43,942 nt of DNA from Pseudomonadales bacterium (GCA_018057015.1 JAGPES010000001.1:1-43942), one strand, 5' to 3'. Positions 9,011 through 32,392 are shown, counted from the first letter of the stretch. Numbers and translations are program-made. The notes: generated by a model from the letters alone, not told the origin.

Positions 9011-9018
9011 GAGCCGCC

Positions 9019-11164: not shown

Positions 11165-11188
11165 AGCATCCGCACCGGAACCGACCAC

Positions 11189-12328: not shown

Positions 12329-12340
12329 TTCACGCGCTTG

Positions 12341-12545
12341 TGTAGGTCCGAATTTATTCGGACAGGTGCCTGCCCAAAGGCACTTGTCAGCATGAATGCT
12401 GACCCACAGGTGCCTGCCCAAAGGCACTTGTCAGCATGAATGCTGACCCACAGGTGCCTGCCCAAAGGCACTTGTCAGCATGAATGCTGACCCACAGGTG
12501 CCTGCCCAAAGGCACTTGTCAGCTACAATGCTCACCCACAGGAAA
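12341..12545. repeat. REP array: one plus-strand REP (tGTAGGTCCGAATTTATTCGGAC) followed by four tandem 44-bp units, three identical and one decayed
   Basis: Units at 12363-12406, 12407-12450 and 12451-12494 are identical: CAGGTGCCTGCCCAAAGGCACTTGTCAGCATGAATGCTGACCCA. The fourth unit at 12495-12538 is degenerate. Each unit holds two hairpins (GTGCCT/AGGCAC and GTCAGCAT/ATGCTGAC). Read on the minus strand each unit starts GTGG + palindrome. Confidence 0.85.
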
Positions 12546-12582
12546 GCAGCATTCCCACAAGGGTTCAGCGTGCCGCCGCTAT

Positions 12583-13290: not shown

Positions 13291-13311
13291 CGCGGGTGCG
13301 CGCCGCGCGCC

Positions 13312-13485
13312 TCATTCTTCCATCAGGTCGAAGTCGAACTTGCTGATGCCACAATCCGGGCACTCGAAATCCGCGGGGACATCCTCCCAGCGCGTGCCCG
13401 GCGCGATGCCCTTGTCCGGCAGGCCGAGGGCTTCGTCGTAGATGAAGCCGCAGATCACGCATTCCCATTTCCTGTAGGCGCTCAT
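13312..13485 (-). CDS. Rubredoxin, 57 aa (absent from the supplied ORF track)
   Basis: My translation is MSAYRKWECVICGFIYDEALGLPDKGIAPGTRWEDVPADFECPDCGISKFDFDLMEE. It has two CxxCG knuckles (CVICG, CPDCG) and a conserved aromatic core. RBS GGAGTG lies 5 nt before the ATG. Track ORF 13283..13492 is the wrong frame. Confidence 0.9.
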   Translation of the reverse strand: MSAYRKWECVICGFIYDEALGLPDKGIAPGTRWEDVPADFECPDCGISKFDFDLMEE

Positions 13486-13504
13486 GTATCACTCCGTCCG
13501 AAAA

Positions 13505-15034: not shown

Positions 15035-15192
15035 CTCGAATATCGATGAAGACTGTCTGTCCGTTCGCTGGCGCAACTTGTTGCCTCCCCGGGGGAACAT
15101 CACGGCTTGTCCATTATGGCACGTGAACCCGATTGGCAACCGACCCGGGAACGCGCACAATCTTGATGTGAATCAGGTCCGGGGAGCAGGCA

Positions 15193-15471
15193 ATGAGCCG
15201 CATCTACATCCAGCGCGATCACGAGCTCGACAACCGGACGCTGCGCAAGCGCGCAGAGAGGCTCGCCAGGCAATTGCAGGACGAGTTCGGGGGCGACTAC
15301 CGCTGGGAAGGCAATACGGTCCACTACAACTATTCCGGTGGCATCGACGCGCGCCTGACCCTGCAGGACGACGACATCCTCGTCGACGTGAAGCTCGGGG
15401 TGCTGATGCTCTTGCTGAAGAACCGCCTGCAACAGGAAATCGAGCGCTACCTCGACAAGCATCTCGCCTGA
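15193..15471 (+). CDS. Putative polyhydroxyalkanoic acid system protein (TIGR02610, PHA_gran_rgn), 92 aa
   Basis: ORF 15193..15471 reads MSRIYIQRDHELDNRTLRKRAERLARQLQDEFGGDYRWEGNTVHYNYSGGIDARLTL...VDVKLGVLMLLLKNRLQQEIERYLDKHL, which matches my memory of this about 90-aa family. RBS is GGGGAG. The gene is divergent from the lipase gene. Confidence 0.7.
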   Translation: MSRIYIQRDHELDNRTLRKRAERLARQLQDEFGGDYRWEGNTVHYNYSGGIDARLTLQDDDILVDVKLGVLMLLLKNRLQQEIERYLDKHLA

Positions 15472-15480
15472 TACGGCCCA

Positions 15481-17646: not shown

Positions 17647-17806
17647 GGCATTACCCCTGCTGACATGGTTGTGCCGTGATAGTAGAGTCGTGCGCGGCCA
17701 CACGGCAACCGGGCCGGTTCGCGATCTCGCTCCCGCTTGATCCGGATCAGTCGGGAGGCCGGAGCCGCGCGCAGGGGCTCGAACTGCACAGGGTGAGGAG
17801 ATCGGG

Positions 17807-18316
17807 ATGGACACGGCGCGAACACGGCGCTCACGGTCGCTGCGGATGCTGGCAATCGCGCTGGCGGGCGCGCTGCCTGCCCTGGGCGCGACCGTGTACA
17901 GGAGCGTCGATGCCGAGGGCAAGGTCAGTTTCTCGGACACGCCGCCCGCAGCCGGCACCGCCACCGAGGTGATCGAAACGCGCGACACCCACACCAGCCC
18001 CGATCCCGACTCGGCCGAAAGGCTGCAGCAGATGCGCGAGACCACCGACCGCCTGCGCGCCGACCGGCTGGCACGCGAGCGGGAGCGCGCGCTGCCGCCG
18101 GCCCCGGCCTACCCGGGCTATCCGCCGCAAGACGACGCGCAACTCGGCGACGAGGAGCGCTGGCTGCTGCCGTATTACCCGCCCTACCGGCGCTGGCACG
18201 GCGGCGGGCATCGTCCCCCGCCGCGACCACCGTATGCCGAACCCGAGCCCCTGCCCTCCGGCACCCGCTCGCTCAGTCCGCGCGGACTGAATTCGCGCCT
18301 GCGCGACGCACGCTGA
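17807..18316 (+). CDS. DUF4124 domain secreted protein with a Pro/Tyr-rich C-terminal region, 169 aa
   Basis: ORF 17807..18316 with RBS GAGGAG. A signal peptide LRMLAIALAGALPALGA is followed by VYRSVDAEGKVSFSDTPP, the DUF4124 signature. Confidence 0.7.
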   Translation: MDTARTRRSRSLRMLAIALAGALPALGATVYRSVDAEGKVSFSDTPPAAGTATEVIETRDTHTSPDPDSAERLQQMRETTDRLRADRLARERERALPPAPAYPGYPPQDDAQLGDEERWLLPYYPPYRRWHGGGHRPPPRPPYAEPEPLPSGTRSLSPRGLNSRLRDAR

Positions 18317-18325
18317 GCGCAGCCT

Positions 18326-19801
18326 TCACGCCAGGCTGAAGCGTCCGGCCGCCACGCGCACCTCGCGCCCGCAGCACTCCTCGCTCTCCAGCCGGTCCAT
18401 CAGCGCCTGGTCCGGGGTATTGGCCAGGGTGCGCGTCCCGTCGGGCTGATCGAGCAGCGCCACGCCGCAGACGCGCGCATCGTTGTGGTACATCACCGTG
18501 TAGCCGCAGATGCGCGCCACGCCGTCCGCGGGCGGAACCACCGTGCGTGGCGGCGATTCCGCGGCGACCTCCGCGCTCACGTCGGCGAACACGAAGCCGC
18601 GCGGACCCGGATCGGCCGACCACACGCCGAAGCCCTGCTTGGTCAGGTACCCCGACACCGAGCTCACCAGCCCGCTCGCGCCGGGCTTCTCGCGCAGCAG
18701 TTCCGCCATGCGCGCGGTGGCCTGCAGCACGTAGTTGTTCAGCGGTCCGCCTGCGAAGGGCATGCCGCCGGTCACGGTCCAGTCGCGATCGGCCGGAATG
18801 CCGAGTTCCGTGGCGTAGAGTTCGACCGCGATCGGGAAGCAGGAATAGAGCTCGACGAAGTCGAGCGCGCCGGGCGCGAGGCCCGTGAGTTCCAGCGCGC
18901 GCTGTCCGGCGATGCGCGCCCCGGGCAGGCGATGCAACTCGGGGCGCTCGGACAGGGCGAGCATGTGGTTCGATTCCGTGCTGGCGCGCGGAAACACCCA
19001 GCGATGGCGCGCAATGCCGAGCGCCTCGGCGCGCGCCGCCGAGCACAACAGCAGCGCCGCGGCCTGGTCCACGTTCCACGAGGTGTTGTGCAGCCTGGTG
19101 TACGGGAAGGCCAGCATGCGGTTGCGCGGCGTGGCATCACGGATCTCGGCGGGCGCGACGCGCTCGCGCTTCCAGGCGTGCGGGTTGGCCGCGGCGATCT
19201 CGCTGAAGCGGCTGTACATCGCCGCCATGCGGTCGCGGTGCTCGGCCACGCCCAGGCCCTGTGCGGCGCGAAAGGCGCTCTCCACCAGCGCGTAGTAGCC
19301 CACCGGCATCATGCCGAGACCGGAGTCGATTTCCAGCGGCAGTTGCAGTTCCTCCTGCGGCGTGAGTACCTCGTCCGGCGCCTCGTCGAAGGGCGTCTCG
19401 GCGGCCTCGGTGCCCGCGATCTGCGCCTGCAGCGCGCGAAAGCGCGCCTCGCCACCGACCACTATCGCGGTCTCGATCTCCCCGGCCGCGATGCGCGCGC
19501 AGGCATCGCCGATCAGCGTCTGCTGCAGGATGCCGACCTTCGCGTAGACGGTGCGCGCGGCCTCCGCGCCGATCGCGCGCGCGATCATCCGCGCCGGGTC
19601 GGCGTAGCCCCAGAGCCCCTGCGGCACGCTGATCAGCGCGGCCTGCGACGGCAACAGCGGCGCGCCACAGTCGGCGCCGGCGGCGCGCACGGCGTCGATC
19701 ATCAGCTGTATCGCCTCGCGTGCCTTCGCGGGATCCTTTTCCTTCTGCTCGACGATGCCGATGCCCACGAGCACCGGCGTGCGTGGATCGATTCCCTTCA
19801 T
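18326..19801 (-). CDS. Thiolase-like protein with extra C-terminal domain (TLP1-like); catalytic Cys/His apparently missing, 491 aa
   Basis: Internal ATG 19801 (RBS AGGGAG) of track ORF 18326..19846. The sequence looks thiolase-fold (IVVGGEARF, VDQAAALLLCS, FVELYSCFP, TGGMPFAGGPLNNY). By-eye alignment puts Gly where the nucleophilic Cys should be (YAKVG vs VNKVC), GGP where GHP is expected, and no C-terminal CxG. About 100 extra residues follow the thiolase core. Confidence 0.7.
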   Translation of the reverse strand: MKGIDPRTPVLVGIGIVEQKEKDPAKAREAIQLMIDAVRAAGADCGAPLLPSQAALISVPQGLWGYADPARMIARAIGAEAARTVYAKVGILQQTLIGDACARIAAGEIETAIVVGGEARFRALQAQIAGTEAAETPFDEAPDEVLTPQEELQLPLEIDSGLGMMPVGYYALVESAFRAAQGLGVAEHRDRMAAMYSRFSEIAAANPHAWKRERVAPAEIRDATPRNRMLAFPYTRLHNTSWNVDQAAALLLCSAARAEALGIARHRWVFPRASTESNHMLALSERPELHRLPGARIAGQRALELTGLAPGALDFVELYSCFPIAVELYATELGIPADRDWTVTGGMPFAGGPLNNYVLQATARMAELLREKPGASGLVSSVSGYLTKQGFGVWSADPGPRGFVFADVSAEVAAESPPRTVVPPADGVARICGYTVMYHNDARVCGVALLDQPDGTRTLANTPDQALMDRLESEECCGREVRVAAGRFSLA

Positions 19802-19846
19802 GTCTGCTCCCTTGCTGCTGCTCGTTGAACGGGTGGACGGCCGCAC

Positions 19847-20740
19847 TCAGAGCGCGGCGACGATGCGGTCGCGATACCCTGCCACCAGCGCCCGCAGCCC
19901 CGCGGGGGTGGTATCGCCGGCCTCGTAGGCGGCAATGATCAGGCGGTTCGCGCCGGCATCGCGGTAGGCACGCACGAGCCCCAGGTCCCAGGTCGCGCCG
20001 TGGCGCCAGCTGGCGGGCCACACCGTGACCGAGAAGCCCTCGAGGCTGCGCCCCGCGCCCGCCGCGGTGGCGCGGATCGTCGCCAGGCGCGCCGCGAGGT
20101 CATCGGGGGAGATCACGTAGGGGTAGAAGCCCTCGCCGCGCAGGCCGGCACGACGCGCCGCCGCCTCCGAGCTGCCGCCGATGTAGAACGGAATGCCGCC
20201 CGGCTGCACCGGCTTGGTGTCGCAGAACACCCGCTCGAAGCGCACGAAGTCGCCGCGGAACGTGGCCGGGTCGTCGCGCCACAGCGCGCGCATTGCGTCG
20301 AGGCATTCGTCCAGGCGCCGCCCGCGAGCGGCGTAGGGCACGCCCACCGCCTCGTATTCCTCCTTCTGCCAGCCGATGCCGATGCCGACCTGCAGGCGAC
20401 CGCCCGAGAGCGCATCGAGCGTGGCCAGGCGCTTGGCCAGCATCGCGGCGCTGTGCTGCGGACCGATCAGCACCCCGGTGGCGAGCCGCAGGCGAGCGGT
20501 GCAGGCGGCGGCGAAGCTCAGCCACTCGAGCGGATCCGGCATCATGGTGTCGGGGACCACCGGCGCGCGGCCGTCCGCGGAATACTCGTAGCGCGGCTCG
20601 TAGTCCTCGGCCATGATCACGTGCTCGGGCATCCACACCGATTCGGCGCCCTCCTCTTCCAGCATCGCGAGGAAGCTGCGCACCCAGCGCGGGTCGGTGC
20701 TGAAACGCCGGTCGCAGATCGGGATCACGCCGAAATGCAT
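19847..20740 (-). CDS. LLM-class (luciferase-like) probable F420-dependent oxidoreductase, Rv2161c/TIGR03619-like, 297 aa
   Basis: Internal ATG 20740 (RBS GAGGAGAGG) of track ORF 19847..20794. The sequence reads MHFGVIP...EEEGAESVWMPEHV...GGRLQVGIGIGWQKEEYEAVGVPYAARGRRLDECLDAMRALW...FYIGGSS. Confidence 0.75.
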   Translation of the reverse strand: MHFGVIPICDRRFSTDPRWVRSFLAMLEEEGAESVWMPEHVIMAEDYEPRYEYSADGRAPVVPDTMMPDPLEWLSFAAACTARLRLATGVLIGPQHSAAMLAKRLATLDALSGGRLQVGIGIGWQKEEYEAVGVPYAARGRRLDECLDAMRALWRDDPATFRGDFVRFERVFCDTKPVQPGGIPFYIGGSSEAAARRAGLRGEGFYPYVISPDDLAARLATIRATAAGAGRSLEGFSVTVWPASWRHGATWDLGLVRAYRDAGANRLIIAAYEAGDTTPAGLRALVAGYRDRIVAAL

Positions 20741-20763
20741 CGTCCTCTCCTCGTCGCACCCGT

Positions 20764-21738
20764 TTACAGCCAGCGCACGCGGCGGAATGCCCACAGCAGC
20801 CCGGCGGCGATGGCGACCATCGCGCCGAGCAGCACGAAGTAACCCGCATCCGAATGCAGCTCCGGCATGTGGTCGAAATTCATGCCGTAGATGCCCGCCA
20901 GGAAGGTCAGGGGCAGAAAGATCACCGAGGCAATCGTCAGTGTTTTCATGATCGAATTCAAGCGGTGGCCGTTCAGCGAGATGTAGCCGTCCATGAGGTC
21001 GCGGGAGAGTTCCTGCATCAGCGCCGAGAGGCTGGTGAGACGCTCCATGTGCTCGAATACATCCTGGAATTCATGCCCGGAGTCGGCGTTGAACAGCGGC
21101 GATTGCGCGTGGCGCAATTCGTCGAGGCAGGCCTGCTGGTAGCCGAAGGTACGGCGCAGCTTCTTCAGCCTGCTGTTGTAGTTGACGAGTTCCAGCAGCA
21201 CGGTGTCGTCGGCGTGCCCGGCGAGCGACTCTTCCAGGGCGTCGAGCCGGCTCTCGAGACCCAGTATCACCGGCGTGTAGCGGTCGACGATGCGCCGCAG
21301 CAGGCGATAGCACAGATGCACGCTGCCGCGCCCGGGCCCCACGGCGCCCTCGGCCACCGCCGACCACAGCGCGAGGATGCTGGGCGACGGCAGCGCGTGC
21401 ACCGTGAGCAGGAAGTTGCGTCCCACGAACATCGAGATGTGGACCACGGACAGGTTGTTGATGTCCGCGGTCTCGGCCGTGAAACCCTTGAACAGCACGA
21501 AGAAGTAGTCGTCGAACCACTCGAGTTTCGGCGGGTGGCGCTCGCGCAGCGCATCGCTGGCGGCCAGCGGGCTGATGCCGAAGCGCTCCGTCAGCAGCGC
21601 ACGCGCGGCCTCGACGGCGTGGCAGTCGATGTCGACCCAGAGCAACGCATCGCCGACCGGATCCCAGGCATCGATCAGCGCCGCATCACCGCAGCGCGGC
21701 GCTCCGACCGGCGACCCTTGCAGCAGCACGTTGATCAT
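20764..21738 (-). CDS. corA: CorA family magnesium/cobalt transporter, 324 aa
   Basis: Internal ATG 21738 (RBS GGAGAA) of track ORF 20764..21798. It has the YGMNF (GMN) motif and two C-terminal TM helices. The first 20 codons of the track ORF lie inside the REP array. Confidence 0.9.
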   Translation of the reverse strand: MINVLLQGSPVGAPRCGDAALIDAWDPVGDALLWVDIDCHAVEAARALLTERFGISPLAASDALRERHPPKLEWFDDYFFVLFKGFTAETADINNLSVVHISMFVGRNFLLTVHALPSPSILALWSAVAEGAVGPGRGSVHLCYRLLRRIVDRYTPVILGLESRLDALEESLAGHADDTVLLELVNYNSRLKKLRRTFGYQQACLDELRHAQSPLFNADSGHEFQDVFEHMERLTSLSALMQELSRDLMDGYISLNGHRLNSIMKTLTIASVIFLPLTFLAGIYGMNFDHMPELHSDAGYFVLLGAMVAIAAGLLWAFRRVRWL

Positions 21739-21753
21739 GCGTTCTCCGTCGCC

Positions 21754-21912
21754 CTGTGGGTCGGCATTCATGCCGACAGGTGCCCTGTGGGTCGACATTC
21801 ATGCCGACAGGTGCCCTGTGGGTCGGCATTCATGCCGACAGGTGCCTAGCTGAACCCAGCTGTCGCCATGAATGGCGACCCACAGATGGCGACCCACAGA
21901 TGGCGACCCGCA
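21754..21912. repeat. REP array: three tandem 31-bp units (CTGTGGGTCGGCATTCATGCCGACAGGTGCC), one inverted REP with a different stem, then 14-bp partial repeats
   Basis: Units lie at 21754-21784, 21785-21815 (one substitution) and 21816-21846. An inverted GTCGCCATGAATGGCGACCCACAG follows, then ATGGCGACCCACAG repeated about 2.5 times. It has the same GTGG head, 8-bp stem and TTCA/TGAA loop design as array 12341-12545. Confidence 0.85.
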
Positions 21913-21932: not shown

Positions 21933-23468
21933 CTATGCGTTCAACAGCTCGCGCAGCTGGTACTTGAGCACCTTGCCGGCGGGGTTACGCGGCATCTCGT
22001 CGACGAAGTGCAGCCGCAGCGGCAGCTTGTAGCGCGCGAGCTTCTCCGCGGCGAAGCCGCGCAGTTCCTCCAGCGTGAGCGTGCTGCCCGGCACCAGGCG
22101 CACCACCGCTGTCACGGCCTCGCCCCACTTCTCGTCCGGCAGGCCGATGACCGCGACCTCGGCAATCGCCGGATGCTCGTAGAGCACGCTCTCGACTTCC
22201 GCCGGGTAGACATTCTCGCCACCGCTGATGACCATGTCCTTGACGCGGTCGCACAGGTACAGGAAACCGTCGGCATCGAAGTAGCCGACATCACCGGTGT
22301 GGAACCAGCCTTCCGCGTCGATGGCCTCGCGCGTGGCCTCGGGACGGTTCCAGTAGCCCTTCATGACGTTGGGCGCGCGCACACAGACCTCACCGCGCTC
22401 GCCGTGCGCGAGCGGGTGGTTCTGCGCGTCGACCACGCGCACATCGCCGTAGAGCGGCGGCTGGCCCGCGGATCCGAGCTTGGTCGCGATCCAGCGGCTG
22501 CCGAGAAAGCTCGCGAACGGCGCGGTCTCGGTGAGACCGTAGCCCTGGCACAGGCGGATGCCGCGCGCCTGGTAGATGCGCAGCAGCGCCTCGGGCACCG
22601 GCGCGCCGCCGCAGACCAGCACCTCGACGCTGGCGAGATCGGCGCTGGCGAATGCCGGGTGCTGCGCCATGAACAGGAACATCGCCGGCGCGCCGAACAT
22701 GGTGGTGACGCGGTAACGCGCGATGTCCTCCAGCACGCGGCCCGGATCGAAGCTGCGGTGCAGGATCACGTGCCCGCCGCCCTGCAGCCCGATCAGCGTG
22801 GTGACGTTCAGACCACCGATGTGGAACAGCGGCGCGGCGGTGAGGCTCACCTCGCCGGCGAAGTTCTCCGGCCCGAAGCGCGCGTTCACGTTGTTCCAGA
22901 AGATATTGCCGTGCGTCAGCATCGCGCCCTTGGGCCGCCCGGTGGTGCCCGAGGTGTACATGATCAGCGCCACGTCATCGGCCTCGACGCGTTCGGCCGC
23001 GGCGAGCGGCAGCACGTGCTCCGTCAGTTCCTCCCGCCCGGTCCATCCCGGCGCGCCCGATTCGGCGCCGACGAACTCCCGGCAGCAGAGGCGGTCGCGT
23101 ATGCCATCGATCACGGCCCTGTGCGCGTCGTCGACCACCAGCGTGTGCGCGCCCGCGTCGTTGATGATGAACTCCAATTCCGCGCCGGTGAGGCGGAAGT
23201 TGAGCGGCACGAAAATCGCGCCGATCGCCGTTGCCGCAAACAGCGTCTCGAGGAACACCGGATGGTTGTGGCCGAGGAAGGCAACGCGGTCACCGCGGTT
23301 TACGCCGCGCTTGCGCAGCGCGCTCGCCAGGCGGCGGATGCGGTCCGCGACGGCCGCGTAGCACAGCGTCTCGCCTTCGAAACTGATCGCCGGCAGCTGC
23401 GGCACCAGCGCCGCGCGCCGCAGGATCATCGCCCCGAGACCCACGTCGGGCAGCGGCATCTCACGCAT
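21933..23468 (-). CDS. FadD-type long/medium-chain fatty acid-CoA ligase (AMP-binding), 511 aa
   Basis: ORF 21933..23468 has YTSGTTGRPKG, GYGLTE, TGD and GKVLK motifs. ATG 23468 overlaps the RND stop by 8 nt (ATGCGTGA). Confidence 0.9.
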   Translation of the reverse strand: MREMPLPDVGLGAMILRRAALVPQLPAISFEGETLCYAAVADRIRRLASALRKRGVNRGDRVAFLGHNHPVFLETLFAATAIGAIFVPLNFRLTGAELEFIINDAGAHTLVVDDAHRAVIDGIRDRLCCREFVGAESGAPGWTGREELTEHVLPLAAAERVEADDVALIMYTSGTTGRPKGAMLTHGNIFWNNVNARFGPENFAGEVSLTAAPLFHIGGLNVTTLIGLQGGGHVILHRSFDPGRVLEDIARYRVTTMFGAPAMFLFMAQHPAFASADLASVEVLVCGGAPVPEALLRIYQARGIRLCQGYGLTETAPFASFLGSRWIATKLGSAGQPPLYGDVRVVDAQNHPLAHGERGEVCVRAPNVMKGYWNRPEATREAIDAEGWFHTGDVGYFDADGFLYLCDRVKDMVISGGENVYPAEVESVLYEHPAIAEVAVIGLPDEKWGEAVTAVVRLVPGSTLTLEELRGFAAEKLARYKLPLRLHFVDEMPRNPAGKVLKYQLRELLNA

Positions 23469-25860
23469 GCGCGGCAGCCTCCTTCGGCTTGGGCAGCAGG
23501 AAATGCGCGAGCGCCGGCATCAGCACCAGCGCGCCGACCATGTTCCACAGGAACATGAAGGTCAGCAGGATCCCCATGTCGGCCTGGAACTTGATCGGCG
23601 AGAAGGCCCACGCCACCACGCCGGAGGCGAGCGTGACACCGACCAGCGCCACCACGCGACCGGTAAAGGCGAGCGCCGCCGCGTAGGCCTTTTCCAGCGG
23701 CAAGCCCTGCCGGGTCTTGGCCAGCGTCACCGTGAGCACGTAAAGCGCGTAGTCGATGCCGATGCCGACGCCGAGCGCGATCACCGGCAGCGTCGCCACC
23801 TTGACGCCGATGCCGAGCACCACCATCAGCGCCTCGCAGAGAACGGACGTGACCATCAGCGGGATCACCGCGCACAGCACCCCGGCAAACGAGCGGAAGG
23901 TGATGAAGCTGAGCACGATCACCGCCGCGTAGACGTAGATCATCATTTCGCGATTGGCCTTCTTCACCACGATGTTGGTGGCGGCCTCGAAACCCGCGTT
24001 GCCCGCCGCGCCGAGAAACTGCACCTGGTCGCTGGACCATTCGGCGTTGAACTCCGCCAGCGTGTCGACCACGGACTGCAGCGTCTTCGCCTTGTGATCG
24101 GACAGGTAGACCAGCAGCGGCGACAGCGAGCACTCGGGGTTGACCAGCCGCTGGTCAACCAGCTCGACGGCGGCATAGTTGATCGAGGACTGGTTGCGAT
24201 TGAGCGAGCGCCACTTGATGTAGCCCTCGTTCAGACCCGCCAGCAGCTGCCGCGTGCCGGTGTTCATGCCAACCACGTCCTCGACTTCGGGCAGCTGGCG
24301 CAGCCTCCACTCGAGCTCGTCAGCCAGGCTGAGCGCCTCGTAGTTCGTACAGCCGTCCTGCGGGGTCTTCACGATGACCGCGAAGATGTCGCTGGACACC
24401 GAGTAGTGCTCGATCATGAACTTGACGTCCTGGTTGTAGCGCGAATCGGGCAGCAGCTCCGGCGCGCCCGGATCGAGGTCGCCTATCTGCAGGTCCTCGG
24501 CGACGAACAGCGCCCCCACGGTCAGCGCGGCGGCGATAAGAATCGCCGCTGTCGCCCACGGACGGCGCGTGAATCGCAGCAGGAAGGCCCACAGTCCGCG
24601 CAGCTCCCCGTGCGACTCCTGCTCGTGGCGCACGGCGCGCGCCGCCGCGCTCGTGGTGACCCCGAGATACGACAGCGCCACCGGGATCATGATCAGGTTG
24701 GTGAAGATCAGCACCGACACGCCGATGCTCGCGGTGATCGCCAGGTCCTGGATCACGGGGATCGTGATGATCAGCAGCACCAGGAAGCCCACGCCGTCGG
24801 CGGCGAGCGCGGTGAAGCCCGCGAGGAACAGGCGGCGGAAGGTGTAGCGCGCGGCCACGTACTTGTGGCAGCCGCGCCCGATGTCCTGCAGCACGCCATT
24901 GAGCTTCTGCGCGCCGTGCGAGATGCCGATCGCGAACACCAGGAACGGCACCAGGATCGAATACGGGTCCAGCTCGAAGCCGAAGGCCGTGAGCAGGCCG
25001 AGTTGCCAGATCACGGCGGCAATCGTCACGCCCAGCACGATCAGCGTGCTGCGCCAGCAGCGCGTGTACCAGTACAGCAGCGCCACCGAGATCACCACCG
25101 CGACACCGAAGAACATCATCACCGCGACCAGGCCTTCGACGAGGTCGCCGACGATCTTCGCGAAGCCGGTGATGTGGATCCGGATGCCGTCGCGCTGGAA
25201 CCTCTCGCGTATCTCTTCCAGGCGCTGCGAGAACTCGAACAGATTGATTGGCTCGCCGGTTTCGGCATCGGTCTGCGCGATCGGGACCAGGATCGCCGCC
25301 GAGCGCAGGTCATTGGCGACGAGATTGCCCACGAGACCGGCGCGCTCGACGTTCAGCTTCACCAGCTCGATCGACGCCGGCGAACCGTCGTAGTCGGGCG
25401 GTATCACCGGCCCGCCCTCGAAGCCTTCCTCGGTCACCACGCGATAGCGTGTGTTCGGCGTCCACAGCGACTTCATGCTCTCGCGCGCCACGCCGGGCGT
25501 GTAGAACACCTCGTTGCTGATCTCCTGGAATGTCGTGAGGAATTCGGGCGTGAAGATCGACTCGTCGTCGGTTTCCACCGCCACCCGCAGCACGTTGCCC
25601 AGCCCGCGCAGAAATTCCGCGTTGGCCTTGTAATTCTGCACGTAGGGGTGATCCGTCGGCAGCATCTTCTCGAAACTGCCCAGCATCTGCAGCCGGGTCG
25701 CGGCGATCCAGCCGAGCACGACGGTGATCACCAGGAAAGCGACGAATATCGCGCCGCGGTTGTTGAAAACCAGCCGCTCGATGAGGTTCCCGGACTGCGC
25801 GTCGAATTGCGCGAGCTCACGGATCGGCGGGAAGTCGTCGGTCTGCTCGACGTAGGCCAT
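23461..25860 (-). CDS. RND-superfamily transporter of the MMPL/HpnN-like (lipid) type, 799 aa
   Basis: ORF 23461..25860 with RBS GGGAGAA. It shows duplicated 1+5 TM topology with two large extracytoplasmic loops. No membrane-fusion or OMF gene is adjacent. Confidence 0.85.
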   Translation of the reverse strand: MAYVEQTDDFPPIRELAQFDAQSGNLIERLVFNNRGAIFVAFLVITVVLGWIAATRLQMLGSFEKMLPTDHPYVQNYKANAEFLRGLGNVLRVAVETDDESIFTPEFLTTFQEISNEVFYTPGVARESMKSLWTPNTRYRVVTEEGFEGGPVIPPDYDGSPASIELVKLNVERAGLVGNLVANDLRSAAILVPIAQTDAETGEPINLFEFSQRLEEIRERFQRDGIRIHITGFAKIVGDLVEGLVAVMMFFGVAVVISVALLYWYTRCWRSTLIVLGVTIAAVIWQLGLLTAFGFELDPYSILVPFLVFAIGISHGAQKLNGVLQDIGRGCHKYVAARYTFRRLFLAGFTALAADGVGFLVLLIITIPVIQDLAITASIGVSVLIFTNLIMIPVALSYLGVTTSAAARAVRHEQESHGELRGLWAFLLRFTRRPWATAAILIAAALTVGALFVAEDLQIGDLDPGAPELLPDSRYNQDVKFMIEHYSVSSDIFAVIVKTPQDGCTNYEALSLADELEWRLRQLPEVEDVVGMNTGTRQLLAGLNEGYIKWRSLNRNQSSINYAAVELVDQRLVNPECSLSPLLVYLSDHKAKTLQSVVDTLAEFNAEWSSDQVQFLGAAGNAGFEAATNIVVKKANREMMIYVYAAVIVLSFITFRSFAGVLCAVIPLMVTSVLCEALMVVLGIGVKVATLPVIALGVGIGIDYALYVLTVTLAKTRQGLPLEKAYAAALAFTGRVVALVGVTLASGVVAWAFSPIKFQADMGILLTFMFLWNMVGALVLMPALAHFLLPKPKEAAAHA

Positions 25861-25878
25861 GCGTTTCTCCCGTCTCCG

Positions 25879-27021
25879 TCAGGGTTGTTGTGCCGCGGCC
25901 ACCGCCGCGGGCAGGCGCTGCACGCGAAGGCCGAAGCTCCCGCTCATGATCAGCTCGCCCGGACGCCCCTCCAGCAGGTCGCTCACGGGTTTGGGATCCT
26001 CGACGGGCAGCGGCGTGAAATTCACGCCCTCGTCCACGCTCAGGAACAGGTTTCCTTCCTGGGTCGCGATCACCACGCGACCGTCGGCAAGCACGGTTCC
26101 GGCCACGACGGAGCTGGTCTGGGGCTTGTTGGCCTCCTGCCAGGTGAGGCCGCGATCGGTCGAGCGGAACACCAGCCCGCGTAAGCCGCCGGTCACCAGC
26201 GTGCCACCCCGCGTGGCGAGGAGCGTGAACATGCTGCCGTCGTAGGGGAAATCCAGTCGGCGCCAATGCCCCGTGGACGGATCCAGCGTCAGCAGCGTGC
26301 CCATTTCGCCGGTCAGGAACTCCTGTGGCGCGACAGCGTCCGTCGCCGCGACGTCGCCAGCGGCCGGCGCAGGCGCGAGCGCCGCATGGTCGAACAGGTG
26401 CACGAGCTGATCGAGATCCAGCAGCTCCATCACCGGAAACCACGACTCGCCGCCGTCCTCGGTGCGGAACAGCAGGCCGTAGGCGCCGGCAGCAAAGCCG
26501 CTCCTGGCATCGTCCATGACGACCCTGAAGAAGGGACGATCCGCGGCCTGCTCGGTCGCGAGCGTCATCTCGTCGACCAGGAAGGCGAAGCGCTCGTTGT
26601 CGGGCTCCTGCTCCTGCTTCTTGCGGTAATGGTCGAGCCCGATCTGTGCGAGCCGCACGCCGTCGAGCTGCTTGACCCAGGACTTGCCGCCATCGCTGCT
26701 GTGCAACACCACGCCGTCATGGCCGACGACCCAACCCTGCTCCGGCGTCGGGAACGCCGCGTCGAGGAGGGAGGAACGCACCGGCACCGATTCGGCCTGG
26801 ACCCAGCTCTGCCCGAAATCGTCCGAGTACAGGATGTGCCCGCGGATGCCGGTGGCGAACACGCGATCACCCGCGCGGGTGAGCGAGTACACCAACGCGC
26901 GCTCCGCCAGCGGGGACTGCACCGCGGGAAGTTCGAGGACATCGTAGCGCTTCGTGTCCTGCGCTGCGGCCAGCGGTGCCAGCAGGCAGGCTGCGCAGAC
27001 GAGGGCGGCGAGTTTTTTCAT
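25879..27021 (-). CDS. Ycf48-like / BNR-repeat beta-propeller protein, secreted, 380 aa
   Basis: ORF 25879..27021 has signal peptide MKKLAALVCAACLLAPLAAAQD. It carries repeated SxDxGxSW motifs (YSDDFGQSW, HSSDGGKSW, RTEDGGESW, RSTDRGLTW). Confidence 0.75.
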   Translation of the reverse strand: MKKLAALVCAACLLAPLAAAQDTKRYDVLELPAVQSPLAERALVYSLTRAGDRVFATGIRGHILYSDDFGQSWVQAESVPVRSSLLDAAFPTPEQGWVVGHDGVVLHSSDGGKSWVKQLDGVRLAQIGLDHYRKKQEQEPDNERFAFLVDEMTLATEQAADRPFFRVVMDDARSGFAAGAYGLLFRTEDGGESWFPVMELLDLDQLVHLFDHAALAPAPAAGDVAATDAVAPQEFLTGEMGTLLTLDPSTGHWRRLDFPYDGSMFTLLATRGGTLVTGGLRGLVFRSTDRGLTWQEANKPQTSSVVAGTVLADGRVVIATQEGNLFLSVDEGVNFTPLPVEDPKPVSDLLEGRPGELIMSGSFGLRVQRLPAAVAAAQQP

Positions 27022-27130
27022 GATTCTTGTTACTCCCGAAACCAGGCTCCGGGCCGCATCACGCGTCCCGGCGACATCGGCACCACGCGCGCGCCGGCCG
27101 CCCCGACCGGCGACCGGCGCGCCGCACGGA

Positions 27131-28504
27131 TCAGCGCACGCCCGTGCGCGCGATGCCCTGCGATGTGAAGAACTGCTCGGACTCGTCGAAACCCTGCGTG
27201 AAGGTGCCCGGGTTCGGCTTGGTATTGATGCTGTAGATGCCCGCCTTCAGGTCGTAGGCGCCAAGGGCCGTGTTGCCGGGCGCCGGAATGTCCCACTGGA
27301 TGAAGGGGTACATCTGCTGCACCCGCCACAACTCGCCCTGCCCGTCCCACAGGTCGCCGAGCAGCGCGGTCCAGCTGTCCTCGTCGATGTAGTAGCGGCG
27401 CTTGCCGTAGATGTGGCGGCTGCCGCTCTTCAGCGTGCCCTCGACGACCCAGACGCGGTGCTTCTCCCAGCGCACGAACTCGGGCTTGAAGAAGTGCTTG
27501 TCGAGCAGGTCCAGGGCCGTCTTCTCGAACACGAAGGTGTTGCAGTTGTAGGGGATCAGCATTTCCTGCTTGCCGACCAGCTTCCACTCGAAACGCTCCG
27601 GCGAGCCGTTGTACATGTAGGAGTCGTCGTAGGTCGAGGTGCCCGCGGTGGAGGGGTTCGGCGTGTCGAAGGACACCGAGGGCGCCTTGCGCACGCGGCG
27701 CTGGCCCGTCAGGTACTGCCACGCATCGCGGCCCTTGCCGGCCGTGTAGTCGGCGCCGGGCTCGTGCACCAGCAGGATCTCGCCGGCACGGCGCGGCGGT
27801 GCCAGGTAGTCGATGCGCAGGTAGGCGTAGCGCAGGTCGGTCGAGCCGTAGTTGCGCTTCTTGTAGTGCTCCATGAACATGGGGTATTCGAACCAGTTGT
27901 CGGCGCTGGCCGCGAGCACGGGCTTGCCGTTGGCGTCGACGTAAAAGCTGTCGTAGCGGTAATAGGACTGGACACCCTGGAACCGGATCATGTGGTTCCA
28001 CAGCACTTCGAGACCGCTCTGCGGAACCGGGAAGGGCACGCCCGGCACGTTGCCCTCGATCATCTGCCCGTCGGCGACCAGCTTGGCGCCCGTCGCGTTC
28101 TGCTTCGTGGCGTCGTAGTACCACTGCGGCTGCGAGACGTTGCGGTGCGTCGGGTAGACATCGAGCCGGAAGCCGTCCTTGCCGTAGCGTTTCAGGATCG
28201 CCTGCGTCCCTTCGGAGAGGATATCGGCGTACTGGGCCATGTTGTCGACCGTGACCTGGTAGATCGGCTTTTCATCCGGGTAGGGGTTCGGGTACTCGGT
28301 ACCCGGTTTCCAGCCGGCGGGCACCGTCACGCCCTTGCCGTCCCACGCGGGGATCGAACCGTCGGCATTGCCGGCCTTCTCGGCGCCCACCGGCGTGAGC
28401 TCGGCACCGAGGCGCGCTGCCTGGTCCGCACCGACCGCGGCGTGCAGCACCGTGGAGGAAGCGGCGCCGATCAGCGCCGCCGCGAATATGCTTTTTATCT
28501 TCAT
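27131..28504 (-). CDS. DUF1329 domain protein (LolA-like fold family), secreted, 457 aa
   Basis: ORF 27131..28504 with RBS AGGAGC and signal peptide MKIKSIFAAALIGAASSTVLHA. Length and the motifs ...VYPTHRN...NHMIRFQG...YNCNTFVFE...KHRVWVVEGTLK match my recollection of DUF1329. Confidence 0.75.
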   Translation of the reverse strand: MKIKSIFAAALIGAASSTVLHAAVGADQAARLGAELTPVGAEKAGNADGSIPAWDGKGVTVPAGWKPGTEYPNPYPDEKPIYQVTVDNMAQYADILSEGTQAILKRYGKDGFRLDVYPTHRNVSQPQWYYDATKQNATGAKLVADGQMIEGNVPGVPFPVPQSGLEVLWNHMIRFQGVQSYYRYDSFYVDANGKPVLAASADNWFEYPMFMEHYKKRNYGSTDLRYAYLRIDYLAPPRRAGEILLVHEPGADYTAGKGRDAWQYLTGQRRVRKAPSVSFDTPNPSTAGTSTYDDSYMYNGSPERFEWKLVGKQEMLIPYNCNTFVFEKTALDLLDKHFFKPEFVRWEKHRVWVVEGTLKSGSRHIYGKRRYYIDEDSWTALLGDLWDGQGELWRVQQMYPFIQWDIPAPGNTALGAYDLKAGIYSINTKPNPGTFTQGFDESEQFFTSQGIARTGVR

Positions 28505-28533
28505 GACGCGAATGCTCCTGTGAAAATCCGGGC

Positions 28534-30450
28534 TCAGAAAGTGCGCTTGACGGTGAACGAGACGTTGTCGCGGTCGATCAGGTTGCCGAGGCTGCCGCGG
28601 TCCTGGTCGCCGAAGAACACGTTGTACTTCAGGTCGATGTTCCAGACCTGCTGGTAATCGAGCGCCAGGCCGATCGAGGCGATGCCGAGCGACTGGTCGC
28701 CGCCGCCGCGCAGGGGCGAGTGGCCGTTGATGCCGTAGGACAGCGACATGGGCAGCCTAAGGTCGAGGCTGGGCGCCACCTGGAACCACTGCGGCGAGAA
28801 CACCGCGTAAATCGAGGTTGCGACGTCGTTTTCGTCGATGAACGAGTTGGCGATCTGCTCGTTGTCGCCGTAGCTCAGCAGCGACGTGGCCGTGAATTCC
28901 ATCGCGTAGGAGCCCCCGTCCCACAACGCGTTCGGATTCAGGAAGCCCAGGCCGTTAACCACCAGGCTCATCACGTCGCCGGTCGCGCCGGCGTAGTTGC
29001 TGCCGTTGTCGGCGCCATCGAAGTCGAAGTTGGCGTTGGCGCTCGAGAAACCCGCGCCCTCGAGCGTGCCCGCGACCGCGCCCGCCAGCGCCCCGAAATT
29101 GGGATAAGGTTCGGTGCGGAGCAGGGTCGCCCTGCCGAAGTCGATCGCGACGTCGTGGCGGTAGGCGAGGTCCATGCCGAAAGAGATGCCCGCGATCTCC
29201 TTGCCCAGGCTCATGCCGAACAGCTCGTTGTCCTCGCGGTAGGTCCACTTGAAGCGACCGATACCGACCGCGGGGTAACCGCCCCCGGTGTAGTAGCCGA
29301 ACTGGTCCGGTTTCTCGCCGCCGGCAAAAGCCGGCCATAAATTGACCAGCAACTGCGCCGTTGCGCTGGTCGGCGCCAACGCGGTGGCGTACTGACCGAC
29401 ATTGAGCGCACCGATCACGCCTTGAGGCGCCTTGTCGTGGTAATTGAGGAAATACAGGCCCAGTTCGAGACCGTCCTCGAACACGTACTGCATGCCCAGG
29501 CCCCATTCCCCTTCTTCGGGCTCCTCGGAACTGTTCTGCACGAAACCGGTGCGCGGCGAGATGAGCGCGCGCGTGACCGGATCCACCTGCCCTGCGACCA
29601 GCGTCGCGAACTCCGCCTGGTCCATCGAGATCTCCGTCAGCGTGAAGTAGCTGCCGGGCGCGGGGTAGCGCGTCGGTTCCCACTCGAAGGAGTAATAGCC
29701 GACCAGTGACAGGTTGGAATTGATCTGGAACGAACCCGACAGCTTGTTGGTCGGCAGGAATAGCTCCTTGGCTTCCGACCCGGGCACCCCGAGCCCCTTG
29801 GCCTGGTCGATGGGCGCCATCGCGCCGGCAATGCCGTTGGTCGCGCCGGATGCGAACAGGCTCTGTCCCCAGTACAGCGTGTGGCGCCCGGCGCGCACGC
29901 TGGCCTCCCCGCTGCCGACCTGGAAGTTGGCGAACACGAAGGCATCGAGCAGTTCGCCGCCCCGGTATGCATAATCGTCGGCGTAGTCGTTGAACTGGCC
30001 CGGACGCACCGTGAGGGAGCCCCAGGTGTCGGTGTAATTGCCGTTGATCCGGTAGTCCTTGTTGACGCCCGGATGGTCGCTGTCGCCGCTGTAGGCGTGG
30101 TCGTACCACCCGGCACCACTCACGCGGAAGCCGAAACGCTTCTTCCACACCAACTCGAGCTCCGAGAGCAGATCGGCGCGATTGCTCACGACGCCGGTGT
30201 CGAAGGCCAGGTTCGCGTCATCGAACAGGGAAGGACTCGCACTGTTCGTGATATCCGAATCCTGATCCTCGACACGGACCATCAAGTTGTACTTGGCGGT
30301 ATTGTCCCAGCGCACCTCGAGGTCGCTGTTGCCCGTGTCGAACTGCATGGCCCAGCCGTGGCCGGCCGTCATCATTGCCGCAACCGCTATGGCGCGGCTC
30401 AACGCGCGTCGGCGTGTCGTGGCCTGCAGAGTGCATTTGGTCGTGTGCAT
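28534..30450 (-). CDS. DUF1302 domain outer-membrane beta-barrel protein, 638 aa
   Basis: Internal ATG 30450 (RBS GAGGGAGA) of track ORF 28534..30816. A signal-like N-terminus ends AGHGWA. The body has alternating beta-strand-like sequence and the C-terminus ends ...VSFTVKRTF (terminal aromatic, OMP-like). Confidence 0.8.
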   Translation of the reverse strand: MHTTKCTLQATTRRRALSRAIAVAAMMTAGHGWAMQFDTGNSDLEVRWDNTAKYNLMVRVEDQDSDITNSASPSLFDDANLAFDTGVVSNRADLLSELELVWKKRFGFRVSGAGWYDHAYSGDSDHPGVNKDYRINGNYTDTWGSLTVRPGQFNDYADDYAYRGGELLDAFVFANFQVGSGEASVRAGRHTLYWGQSLFASGATNGIAGAMAPIDQAKGLGVPGSEAKELFLPTNKLSGSFQINSNLSLVGYYSFEWEPTRYPAPGSYFTLTEISMDQAEFATLVAGQVDPVTRALISPRTGFVQNSSEEPEEGEWGLGMQYVFEDGLELGLYFLNYHDKAPQGVIGALNVGQYATALAPTSATAQLLVNLWPAFAGGEKPDQFGYYTGGGYPAVGIGRFKWTYREDNELFGMSLGKEIAGISFGMDLAYRHDVAIDFGRATLLRTEPYPNFGALAGAVAGTLEGAGFSSANANFDFDGADNGSNYAGATGDVMSLVVNGLGFLNPNALWDGGSYAMEFTATSLLSYGDNEQIANSFIDENDVATSIYAVFSPQWFQVAPSLDLRLPMSLSYGINGHSPLRGGGDQSLGIASIGLALDYQQVWNIDLKYNVFFGDQDRGSLGNLIDRDNVSFTVKRTF

Positions 30451-30577
30451 GGACGCATCTCCCTCGAGGTTATTGTTGGCTGCAACGCCTTTTGTAGCGG
30501 ATTCTAGCCGTGACTGCGAGCGATTCCTTGATCCAGATTGTATCCGGGCCCGATTCTTCTTCCCTTCGCGGCACCGC

Positions 30578-32392
30578 TCAATCCCCCGCAAACGGTGCCA
30601 CCCCCAGCCGTTCGAGCGCTTCGTGCGAGTATGGCACGTAGCCGCCGGCCGCATCGTCGAGCACCAGCAGCGGATCCGGGACGCGTGCCGGATCGTAGCC
30701 CTCGCGCTGCAGGTCGACCTTGCGCAGCTTGAAGGTGGCGGTGATGTCGGCCTGGGGGCTGAGGCGCAGGAACAGCGGTATGGCGTAGAACGGCAGGCGC
30801 GCACGGCAATGGGCATGGAATGCCGCGGCGTCCAGCGTGCAGCCCGGCTGCATCACCAGCGCCGCCATCCCGGCGCGGCCCTCCTGCCCGGGCACGTGCA
30901 CGCCGTAGACATTGATGGTCTCGATGCCCGGGAAATCGCCTATGGCGTCCGCGACCTCCTGGGTCGAGACGTTCTCCGACTTCCAGCGGAAGGTGTCGCC
31001 GATACGGTCCACGAAGAAGAAGTAGCCGTCATCGTCGTAGCGCATCAGGTCGCCGGAGCTCCACCAGGCATCCCCGGCCACGAAGACGTCGCGCAGGATC
31101 TTCTTCTGCGTGTCCTCGGCCGAGGTGTAGCCCTCGAACGCCGCGCCGTACATGCCGGGTGCGGGAGAGCTGATCAGCCCCAGCACTTCCCCGATTTCCC
31201 CCGGATGGCAGGCAATCATGAAGCCGGCGGCATCGCGCAGGTGCGCGCCTCTCTCGATGTCGTAGCGCGCCAGCCTGAGGTTGCTGCGTTCGAAATACGG
31301 GATGCGCCCGCAGGAGCCGATGCGGTTGTCGAGGTTCATCAGGTTGGTGTTCGCCTCGGTCGAGCCCCAGCCCTCGAAGATCTGCGCCACGCCGAAGCGC
31401 GCCTGGAAGCGCTCCCACACGTCCGCCGACAGGCCGGCGCCGGTCATGGCGCGCAGCGTGTGCTCGCGGTCGTCGGATCGCGGCGGCTGGTTCAGCAGGT
31501 AGCGGCAGATCTCGCCGATGTACTGGCACACCGTGACGCGATGGCGACGCACCTCGTCCCAGAACGCGCTGGCACTGAAGCGCCGGCGCATCACTATCGC
31601 CGCGCCCGCGCTGAGGGCATTCGCCGTGAGCGACATGCCGGCCGCGCTGTGGTAGAGCGGGAGCACGCAATAGAACACGTCCTGCCCGGTCGCCTTCACC
31701 GTCACGCGCATCTGCTCGCCGGAGCTCAGCCAGCGCCAGTGGCTGTTCAGGGCCGCCTTCGGCAGGCCGGTGGTGCCGGAGGTGAAGACATAGACCGCGG
31801 TGTCGCGGCAGCGGATCCCGGCGCGCGCCGCGCGCGGCAGATCCTCCGCGCCGGCCTGCGCGGCGCGCGCGGAGAAATCCAGCGCGCACAGCGCGACGAG
31901 TTCCGGCGTCGCCGGATGCAGCGCATCGGGCCAGCGCCACAGCGGCACGCCCGCAGCGCGCGATTCCGCCACCGTGAAACGCGCCAGCGCCTCGTCGCCC
32001 ACGATGCAGGCCTTCGCCCCGGTGATCGCGAGCGCGTGCGCGAGCGGCCGCCCGCTGATGTTCGTGTTGAGAAAAGCCGGCTTGATGCCTGCCTTCACCA
32101 GCCCGAACCACACCACGAAGAATTCCGGCCGGTTGTCCAGCGACACCGCGCAGGTGTCGCCCCTGGCGAGCCCCAGCGCGAGCGCGGCATGGGCCACGCG
32201 GTTGGCGCGACGGTTGACCTCGGCGTAGCCGAGCGTGTCGTCGCCGGCGATCAGGAAGGGGCGCTCGCCGCAACGGGCGACGATCTCCTCGAACTTGTCG
32301 GCGATGGTGAATTCAGCGGCGGGATCCACGGTCATGGCGGCCTGGACGCGAAGGTCCATGATCGCCTGCGTCTGTTCGCGCGGAACCACCAT
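30578..32392 (-). CDS. FATP/FadD6-type (very-)long-chain acyl-CoA synthetase, 604 aa
   Basis: ORF 30578..32392 with RBS GAGGAAAGGGG. Motifs are FTSGTTGLPKA, EGWGSTE, SGDL, YFFFVDRIGDTFRWKSENVST and TFKLRK, characteristic of the FATP-like clade. Confidence 0.85.
   Translation of the reverse strand: MVVPREQTQAIMDLRVQAAMTVDPAAEFTIADKFEEIVARCGERPFLIAGDDTLGYAEVNRRANRVAHAALALGLARGDTCAVSLDNRPEFFVVWFGLVKAGIKPAFLNTNISGRPLAHALAITGAKACIVGDEALARFTVAESRAAGVPLWRWPDALHPATPELVALCALDFSARAAQAGAEDLPRAARAGIRCRDTAVYVFTSGTTGLPKAALNSHWRWLSSGEQMRVTVKATGQDVFYCVLPLYHSAAGMSLTANALSAGAAIVMRRRFSASAFWDEVRRHRVTVCQYIGEICRYLLNQPPRSDDREHTLRAMTGAGLSADVWERFQARFGVAQIFEGWGSTEANTNLMNLDNRIGSCGRIPYFERSNLRLARYDIERGAHLRDAAGFMIACHPGEIGEVLGLISSPAPGMYGAAFEGYTSAEDTQKKILRDVFVAGDAWWSSGDLMRYDDDGYFFFVDRIGDTFRWKSENVSTQEVADAIGDFPGIETINVYGVHVPGQEGRAGMAALVMQPGCTLDAAAFHAHCRARLPFYAIPLFLRLSPQADITATFKLRKVDLQREGYDPARVPDPLLVLDDAAGGYVPYSHEALERLGVAPFAGD

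Follow-up and report, generated by a model that had tools for sequence, protein, structure and literature searches.

The window analysed here, a 43,942-nt stretch of Pseudomonadales bacterium DNA (GCA_018057015.1 JAGPES010000001.1:1-43942), carries between positions 21933 and 32392 a cluster of six genes, of which the middle four encode a DUF1302 outer-membrane beta-barrel, a periplasmic DUF1329 protein, a Ycf48-like BNR beta-propeller and a resistance-nodulation-division (RND) transporter of the MMPL type, and the outer two encode acyl-CoA synthetases (herein referred to as ACS1 and ACS2). The four middle genes very probably constitute a member of the AmeABCD-type systems, which take their name from the tetrapartite RND transporter of Castellaniella defragrans (Puentes-Cala and Harder 2018; PMC6394551). 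We further hypothesize, with about an even chance of being right, that the AmeABCD-type cassette serves in this lineage as a conduit within a fatty-acyl catabolic array, bringing in acyl lipids for trapping as CoA esters. A sequence-only reading of the same DNA had presented the system as undescribed, which does not hold, since the core is AmeABCD (PMC6394551) and has been reported repeatedly; the six same-strand genes and the spacings it gave were recovered exactly, all on the minus strand, and every one of its family assignments agrees with Pfam. The features are as follows:

30578-32392, minus strand: ACS1, FATP-type long-chain acyl-CoA synthetase, 604 aa, without a transmembrane (TM) segment
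30451-30577, minus strand: ACS1-DUF1302 spacer, 127 nt, conserved, a putative internal promoter/operator
28534-30450, minus strand: DUF1302 outer-membrane beta-barrel, AmeA-like, 638 aa, C-terminal Phe
27131-28504, minus strand: DUF1329 periplasmic LolA-like protein, AmeB-like, 457 aa, signal-peptide-like N-terminus
25879-27021, minus strand: Ycf48-like BNR beta-propeller, AmeC-like, 380 aa, signal-peptide-like N-terminus
23461-25860, minus strand: HAE3/MMPL-type RND inner-membrane transporter, AmeD-like, 799 aa
21933-23468, minus strand: ACS2, FadD13/FadD5-like fatty-acyl-CoA synthetase, 511 aa, start overlapping the RND stop
12583-21798, minus strand except for one small plus-strand gene: downstream context array, not part of the core

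The intergenic gaps from ACS1 to the RND gene measure 127, 29, 109 and 18 nt, the RND stop and the ACS2 start share the 8-nt overlap ATGCGTGA, and a GGAG/GAGG-like site precedes every one of the six starts.

Membership of the AmeABCD-Type Systems

All of the AmeABCD-type features that we tested are present in the window: DUF1302, DUF1329, a propeller gene ahead of the RND gene, an HAE3-like RND and the order A-B-C-D. The likeness to AmeABCD, which rests on families and gene order and not on aligned sequences, comprises the same four families in the same order, an RND of ~790 aa, the lack of a membrane fusion protein (MFP) or outer membrane factor (OMF), and a position inside a hydrophobic-substrate catabolic cluster. 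The two differ in that the context of AmeABCD is monoterpene catabolism, whereas here it is fatty-acyl, and in that ameD has no coupled acyl-CoA synthetase. The RND of C. defragrans was described as a new HAE3 sub-lineage that is always accompanied by DUF1302, DUF1329 and COG4447 partners (PMC6394551); family assignments of the cluster neighbours in the window revealed no membrane-fusion or TolC-like gene, in agreement with the earlier remark that the RND gene has no adjacent MFP or OMF partner.

The same four families, with cofit genes, are found in Pseudomonas putida (PP_0765/0766 and PP_2018/2019) and in Shewanella amazonensis (Sama_1588-1591), and cofitness of the four genes has been reported for S. 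amazonensis, Kangiella aquimarina, Pseudomonas stutzeri and P. fluorescens strains (Price et al. 2016/2018). The likeness to P. putida extends to a predicted outer-membrane pair and inner-membrane pair with DUF1329 as the bridge; in pseudomonads, however, the genes are split over two loci with a LuxR-type activator, whereas here they are contiguous, ACS2 overlaps the RND gene and no LuxR gene is adjacent to the cassette. AlphaFold-Multimer has predicted contacts for the pairs PP_0766-PP_0765, PP_0766-PP_2019 and PP_2018-PP_2019, from which a novel substrate transport system was hypothesized; in it DUF1329 touches the barrel as well as the RND, to which the propeller is also bound (Foldy 2024), and the DUF1302-DUF1329 pair has an interface predicted template modelling score (ipTM) of 0.84 (ECLIPSE 2026). 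No biochemical work newer than that in the papers cited here came up in literature searches. Marinobacter AupA/AupB was considered as the identity of the system and ruled out, AupA being FadL-like and unrelated.

The cassette is conserved well beyond this genome. Among 78 genome loci of relatives (designated L001 and so forth), which were retrieved with a DUF1329 profile, DUF1302-DUF1329-BNR-RND occurs in identical order in 21, BNR-RND with a cut or relocated DUF1302 in three and the DUF1302-DUF1329 pair alone in three, whereas 14 carry tandem DUF1329 genes and 37 a lone DUF1329; the propeller gene lies immediately upstream of every untruncated RND homologue. Three of four plasmid loci (those of Azoarcus sp. 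KH32C, P. aeruginosa and Paraburkholderia sprentiae) also have a contiguous cassette, and conservation of the four-gene core, on which the sequence-only reading had depended, is thus borne out by the 21 loci together with the plasmids. Pseudohalioglobus lutimaris HF004 (L019/L089) is an example of a carrier that is in culture.

Several loci depart from this arrangement. The DUF pair and the YCF48-related/MMPL pair of Azospirillum sp. B510 (plasmid pAB510c, L082, 7277-19290) lie ~6.6 kb apart on the same strand, and because the genes that separate them are for aromatic ring cleavage (including Rieske, VOC and fumarylacetoacetate hydrolase), the two transporter halves bracket a catabolic operon. 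In one gammaproteobacterial lineage two complete, divergently oriented cassettes stand back to back (L011, 1225-14924, and L090, 1-12499), with RNDs that are 64-65% and 46-47% identical to that of the window and with the order BNR-RND-DUF1302-DUF1329 in the second cassette. Solo or tandem Halieaceae DUF1329 proteins (L008-L010, L012, L018, L022, L024, L092, L093 and ~40 others) are 53-60% identical to that of the window and have no DUF1302, propeller or RND gene within 10 kb; in L092 and L093, whose neighbours were examined, DUF1329 lies at a conserved site beside ppnP and a UvrD-like helicase. One possibility is that these solo proteins are orphan carriers for transporters whose genes lie at other loci.

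The host lineage itself belongs to uncultured Gammaproteobacteria related to Halieaceae. The metagenome-assembled genome MFD00905.bin.3.260 is a close relative, its locus L001 (CAWFXU010000021.1) sharing 94.2% nucleotide identity with the window with 93 gap openings over 19.7 kb; the two are thus not one contig, and the window represents a sister strain or species. The DUF1302, propeller, RND and ACS2 genes are in fragments there (8035-16572), which most likely reflects long-read indel error and not pseudogenization.

Outer-Membrane Barrel, LolA-Like Protein and Propeller

The DUF1302 protein matches PF06980 over residues 18-638 (362 bits) and ends in ...VKRTF, with a terminal Phe in at least 90% of 60 homologues, so that the residue typical of outer-membrane proteins, to which the sequence-only reading had drawn attention, is kept across the homologues. 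Its AlphaFold2 (AF2) model is a large beta-barrel (predicted local distance difference test, pLDDT, 89.1; predicted template modelling score, pTM, 0.84) that begins at about residue 35, following an unstructured or helical leader. The Foldseek neighbours of this model are chitoporin, OccAB1-4, OccD/K, OmpF and AlgE, at a query-normalized TM-score (template modelling score) of merely 0.35-0.38, and there is hence no close solved relative; searches by sequence likewise found no solved relatives for either DUF1302 or DUF1329. A FadL-family channel was considered for DUF1302 and rejected, there being no FadL-family Pfam match and no FadL among the 50 best fold matches. The DUF1302 family is large, with ~1,270 representative clusters (50% identity, E <=1e-10), or ~2,075 at E <=0.001.

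The DUF1329 protein scores 419 bits against PF07044 and 30.6 bits against LolA_like, where the cut-off is 30; its proposed affinity to the LolA-like fold is hence real though marginal. The sole match of a DUF1329 profile search against solved structures was a LolA-like lipoprotein sorter (E 0.47), and more than 7000 DUF1329 homologues were found. The propeller scores 54 bits against PSII_BNR and matches the Ycf48 structures 5ojr and 2xbg at E 2e-15. Both proteins carry the N-terminal hydrophobic segments expected from the signal-peptide-like leaders that had been assigned to them (residues 6-24 in DUF1329, with no lipobox Cys, and residues 4-22 in the propeller, without a lipobox), as found by TM and hydrophobicity prediction and not by a dedicated predictor.

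The RND Transporter

The RND protein matches MMPL in Pfam (48.5 bits), and its best NCBIfam model is TIGR00921 (HAE3), at 138 bits against a curated cut-off of 352, which it does not reach. Its layout (TM1, a ~185-aa periplasmic loop, TM2-6, TM7, a second ~185-aa loop and TM8-12) is the duplicated 1+5 arrangement that had been described for it. The top 50 Foldseek matches of its AF2 model (pLDDT 70.8, pTM 0.63) are all lipid or sterol RNDs, namely MmpL3/4/5, HpnN, NCR1/NPC1/NPC1L1, Patched and Dispatched. Likeness to HpnN, Patched and MmpL3 in sequence is remote (E 1e-5) and confined to the C-terminal TM bundle, and a profile search against the PDB gave fewer matches rather than more. The alternative of a HAE1 AcrB-type tripartite pump was rejected, given that the protein has no ACR_tran match, is 799 aa long (vs ~1040 aa) and finds no AcrB among the Foldseek top 50; NCBIfam, sequence and fold matches thus agree with the earlier placement of the RND in the MMPL/HpnN type and not the AcrB type.

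D703-Y704 in TM10 (23749-23757), part of an MMPL-type G-x-G-x-D-Y motif, does not vary among 35 homologues, and its counterpart in MmpL5 is an Asp-Tyr pair with which it aligns. TM4 carries the invariant motif FAIG(V/I)SHGAQK, with S314-H315 at 24916-24924, and both motifs are kept down to 46% identity (46-55% in plasmid-borne and paralogous cassettes). The Asp-Tyr relay points to energy coupling and a proton-driven RND. The TM4 Ser-His may be the positional equivalent of the Asp-Tyr that MmpL proteins have in TM4, in which case the cassette-linked RNDs would share an asymmetric motif pair; this equivalence is by motif inspection alone, because an internal BLASTP of the N-terminal against the C-terminal half was not significant. 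HpnN and MmpL3/4/5 hence have the fold class, size, two periplasmic domains and TM10 Asp-Tyr relay in common with the RND of the window, but their systems are without DUF1302, DUF1329 or propeller partners.

Acyl-CoA Synthetases Flanking the Cassette

The two synthetases score 191 and 308 bits against the AMP-binding family of Pfam. ACS1 exceeds the cut-off of the NCBIfam long-chain acyl-CoA synthetase equivalog NF006134 (710 vs 625 bits) and has as its best solved relative human FATP2/SLC27A2 (9vzp, E 8.8e-127; next family 1.4e-33), which bears out the FATP-type label given to it earlier. ACS2 exceeds the cut-off of NF004837 (517 vs 476 bits), matches 8weu (E 8.7e-136) and Mycobacterium tuberculosis FadD5 (8r2q, E 1.4e-106) in the PDB, and resembles CoA ligases of the FadD13/FadD5 type, its C-terminal domain being complete.

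Flanking by the two synthetases is specific to one lineage, and ACS1 is patchier than ACS2. ACS2 lies directly after the RND gene in nine of the ten loci whose RND is 69-99% identical to that of the window. Among the annotated loci, the 8-nt RND/ACS2 overlap is kept in L083, L084 and L086-L088 and gives way to a 75-nt gap in L085, and throughout L083-L088 ACS2 is followed, as in the window, by CorA, a luciferase-like monooxygenase (LLM) class oxidoreductase, a thiolase-like protein, a CoA-transferase-like protein and a patatin lipase. The notion that adenylating enzymes are hard-wired at both ends therefore stands for ACS2 where RND identity is at least 69%, and for ACS1 in some of those loci, and it fails for the Halieaceae and plasmid cassettes, which have no synthetase flank: the Halieaceae orthologues are flanked by short-chain dehydrogenases/reductases, an AraC or LysR regulator and an ExbBD/TonB set, never with a FadD-type gene after the RND gene, and neither ACS1 nor ACS2 flanks the plasmid cassettes.

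Such patchiness raises the alternative, which we judge very unlikely, that the adjacency is incidental, the cassette having landed in a lipid-catabolic neighbourhood whose synthetases have no functional link to it. This would fit the large majority of cassettes, which are without ACS flanks, the restriction of ACS1 to some close relatives (only L001, L002 and L086/L087 have it ahead of the cassette, and unrelated genes take its place in L084 and L085) and locus L005, which lacks both synthetases with an RND that is 70% identical. It does not readily fit the retention of the RND/ACS2 overlap over 69-99% RND identity while the upstream flank varies, nor the recurrence of AMP-binding or CoA-ligase genes near cassettes in Azoarcus, Paraburkholderia and pseudomonads. 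AMP-binding genes lie loosely near the cassettes of Azoarcus, Paraburkholderia, L058 and L091, and the DUF pair is found near fatty-acid CoA ligases in many pseudomonads (Thompson et al. 2020).

The spacer between ACS1 and DUF1302 (30451-30577) aligns with few changes when the window is compared with L001, L002 and L086, the last a more distant relative, and contains a palindrome, CGGGCCCG, and repeated GAATCG motifs. Its conservation exceeds what non-coding DNA would lead one to expect. Because these 127 nt are so strongly conserved where ACS1 is present, the spacer is probably a promoter or operator ahead of DUF1302. Searches for sigma-70 promoters and intrinsic terminators across the cluster gave nothing above shuffled expectation, with no sigma-70 consensus in the spacer, and Rfam gave no match in the spacer, only a distant tRNA-Arg.

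Cargo and Direction of Transport

The co-directional array that contains the cluster is longer than the sequence-only reading had it, running from ~34120 down to ~12583. Its downstream members encode CorA, an LLM-class oxidoreductase, a PRK08257 thiolase-like protein, a CoA-transferase-domain protein, a patatin/DUF3336 lipase and a TMEM164-related acyltransferase, and a pimC/pimD-like acyl-CoA dehydrogenase pair is also among the cluster neighbours. We hypothesize that the cassette was inserted into this fatty-acyl/lipid catabolic array in the present lineage, with the RND gene becoming translationally coupled to ACS2 and with ACS1 upstream. An outer-membrane module, the DUF1302 barrel with its LolA-like partner DUF1329, and an inner-membrane module, a proton-driven MmpL/HpnN/NPC1-like RND with the Ycf48-like propeller on its periplasmic face, would associate physically and jointly carry hydrophobic molecules across the Gram-negative envelope. 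The route would lead inward from the outer-membrane barrel through DUF1329 and the RND/propeller to the inner membrane, and conversion to CoA thioesters would then keep the acyl chains in the cytoplasm (vectorial acylation), from where they would pass to the neighbouring acyl-CoA dehydrogenases and thiolase-like enzymes. The cargo is most likely long-chain fatty acids or fatty esters, because the RND is coupled to the FadD-type ACS2, the FATP-type ACS1 lies upstream and the neighbours are beta-oxidation-like or lipolytic and not biosynthetic.

Three lines of evidence lead us to favour import: an ester-specific growth defect in P. putida, the catabolic contexts of the cassettes and the expansion of paralogues. 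Growth on Tween 20 requires PP_0765/0766, PP_2018 and PP_2019, growth on butyl stearate PP_0765/0766 and PP_2018, whereas the genes are dispensable on laurate or myristate (Thompson et al. 2020). Cassettes lie within aromatic, monoterpene and benzene catabolic clusters; a Desulfobacterota strain that degrades benzene expresses the cassette at a high level, and deletion of a Delftia DUF1329 gene impairs growth on phenanthrene. DUF1329 and DUF1302 also show the heavy paralogous expansion that is typical of substrate-specific uptake components.

There are analogies for parts of this route. NPC2-NPC1 may serve as a precedent for an RND to which a soluble beta-sandwich carrier hands lipid for insertion into the membrane, and NPC1, NCR1 and NPC1L1 are structural neighbours of the RND here; the comparison is one of analogy alone, DUF1329 having no sequence-level relation to NPC2. 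FadL-FadD and the Mce1-FadD5 operon of M. tuberculosis likewise tie an acyl-CoA synthetase genetically to a fatty-acid uptake route, but no FadL-family barrel and no Mce/YrbE is present here, and the DUF1302 barrel is far larger, its structural neighbours being porin/Occ-like. More tentatively, then, the cassette may be an uptake machine in which an OM-docked LolA-like carrier hands its lipid to an NPC1-like RND/propeller for delivery to the inner membrane, where the coupled acyl-CoA synthetase would trap it.

Several points weigh against inward transport of this kind. To our knowledge, no bacterial RND is known to act as an importer. Tween 20 is a detergent, and the P. putida phenotype on it could therefore be one of sensitivity and not of failed uptake. 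Where RND identity is 65% or less (~24 loci), no synthetase lies next to the cassette, and because the ACS flanks are missing from most cassettes, they say nothing on the general function of the system; the conserved 127-nt spacer also suggests that ACS1 is a separate transcription unit, and the RND model is of moderate confidence (pLDDT 70.8). Previous authors have favoured the outward direction: export or tolerance was concluded for AmeABCD, because the mutant accumulated slightly more Nile Red (PMC6394551), and export of a cell-wall or envelope component was proposed from pleiotropic phenotypes (Price et al. 2016/2018).

The main rival explanation, which we consider possible but doubtful, is hence an efflux or tolerance pump, in which the RND would pull hydrophobic compounds such as free fatty acids, detergents, terpenes or aromatics from the inner membrane and expel them via DUF1329 and DUF1302, protecting the cell during their catabolism, with the synthetases merely members of the same catabolic regulon. 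RND transporters canonically pump outward, and deletion of ameABCD lowers limonene tolerance, raises Nile Red accumulation and impairs growth on non-functionalized monoterpenes (PMC6394551); however, the Nile Red change is small and was seen in CCCP (carbonyl cyanide m-chlorophenylhydrazone)-treated cells only (PMC6394551), and the poor growth of ameB and ameABCD mutants on monoterpenes as sole carbon source equally fits failed uptake. In Betaproteobacteria the cassette is under phenol-responsive regulators and its four genes have been assigned to coping with solvent stress, which agrees with efflux, as the Tween 20 phenotype agrees with detergent sensitivity. Butyl stearate is no detergent, yet growth on it needs the system, and it is not apparent what an efflux pump would gain from translational coupling of RND and synthetase.

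Export of a self-made lipid is less likely than efflux, as is the incidental adjacency considered above, and we regard it as quite improbable. Here fatty acids activated by the synthetases would go into a product such as an envelope lipid, a wax ester or triacylglycerol, which the cassette would bring to the outer membrane or out of the cell, comparable to mycobacterial FadD-MmpL loci and HpnN. Such export is consistent with the cell-wall component that Price et al. proposed from pleiotropic cofitness, with the presence of DUF1302 and DUF1329 proteins in Delftia outer-membrane vesicles and nanopods, with the lipid exporters MmpL3/4/5 and HpnN as closest structural relatives, with a wax ester synthase/diacylglycerol acyltransferase (WS/DGAT) gene two genes upstream of the Halieaceae cassette L091, and with the TMEM164-related acyltransferase and polyhydroxyalkanoate (PHA)-granule-associated genes of the window. 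The immediate surroundings speak otherwise: no polyketide synthase (PKS), acyltransferase cascade or other biosynthetic genes stand beside the cassette, where beta-oxidation-type enzymes and a lipase are found instead, and ACS2 is a FadD13/FadD5-type CoA ligase with its C-terminal domain complete. The catabolic contexts in other taxa, and the several paralogous cassettes per genome, which are hard to reconcile with one housekeeping lipid, also count against such export. A mycobacterial FadD-MmpL-PKS export locus was specifically considered and rejected: a FadD-type gene is adjacent, but family assignments of the neighbours found no PKS or lipid-synthesis genes in the 44-kb window, and ACS2 fits CoA-ligase models; in such loci the gene next to MmpL is a FadD of the fatty acyl-AMP ligase (FAAL) kind.

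Other Genes of the Window

The region 12583-15471 encodes the TMEM164-related integral-membrane acyltransferase (TIGR02206, 128 bits), the patatin lipase with its DUF3336 N-terminal domain and, on the plus strand, a small PHA-granule-associated protein (TIGR02610), a trio that suggests turnover of neutral or storage lipids beside the cluster. Next to it, 15481-18045 encodes an 854-aa protein whose sole match is an acetyl-CoA hydrolase/transferase C-terminal domain at residues 568-730, its first ~560 residues having no family assignment; relatives keep it downstream of ACS2, with a called length of ~721 aa. The LLM-class oxidoreductase (19847-20794), ahead of which a cytochrome P450 gene is inserted in L085, passes the cut-off of TIGR03619, an F420-dependent subfamily; F420 is unusual in gammaproteobacteria. 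At the other end of the window, a 485-aa open reading frame (1481-2938, plus strand) shows coding-like GC3 and matches no Pfam family at E <=0.001.

Significance

The DUF1302/DUF1329/Ycf48-like/HAE3-RND system is widespread and recurs in clusters for the degradation of terpenes, aromatics, polycyclic aromatic hydrocarbons, benzene and fatty esters; it has been studied genetically. The locus described here is no new system; it carries a clade-specific link to acyl-CoA synthetases, which refines an existing hypothesis and does not give rise to a new one. The coupling of RND and synthetase inside a beta-oxidation-type array points to a fatty-acyl cargo and makes the import hypothesis concretely testable. 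If true, RND-dependent uptake of fatty acyl compounds would represent the first bacterial importer of the RND family and a third route of lipid uptake beside FadL and Mce.

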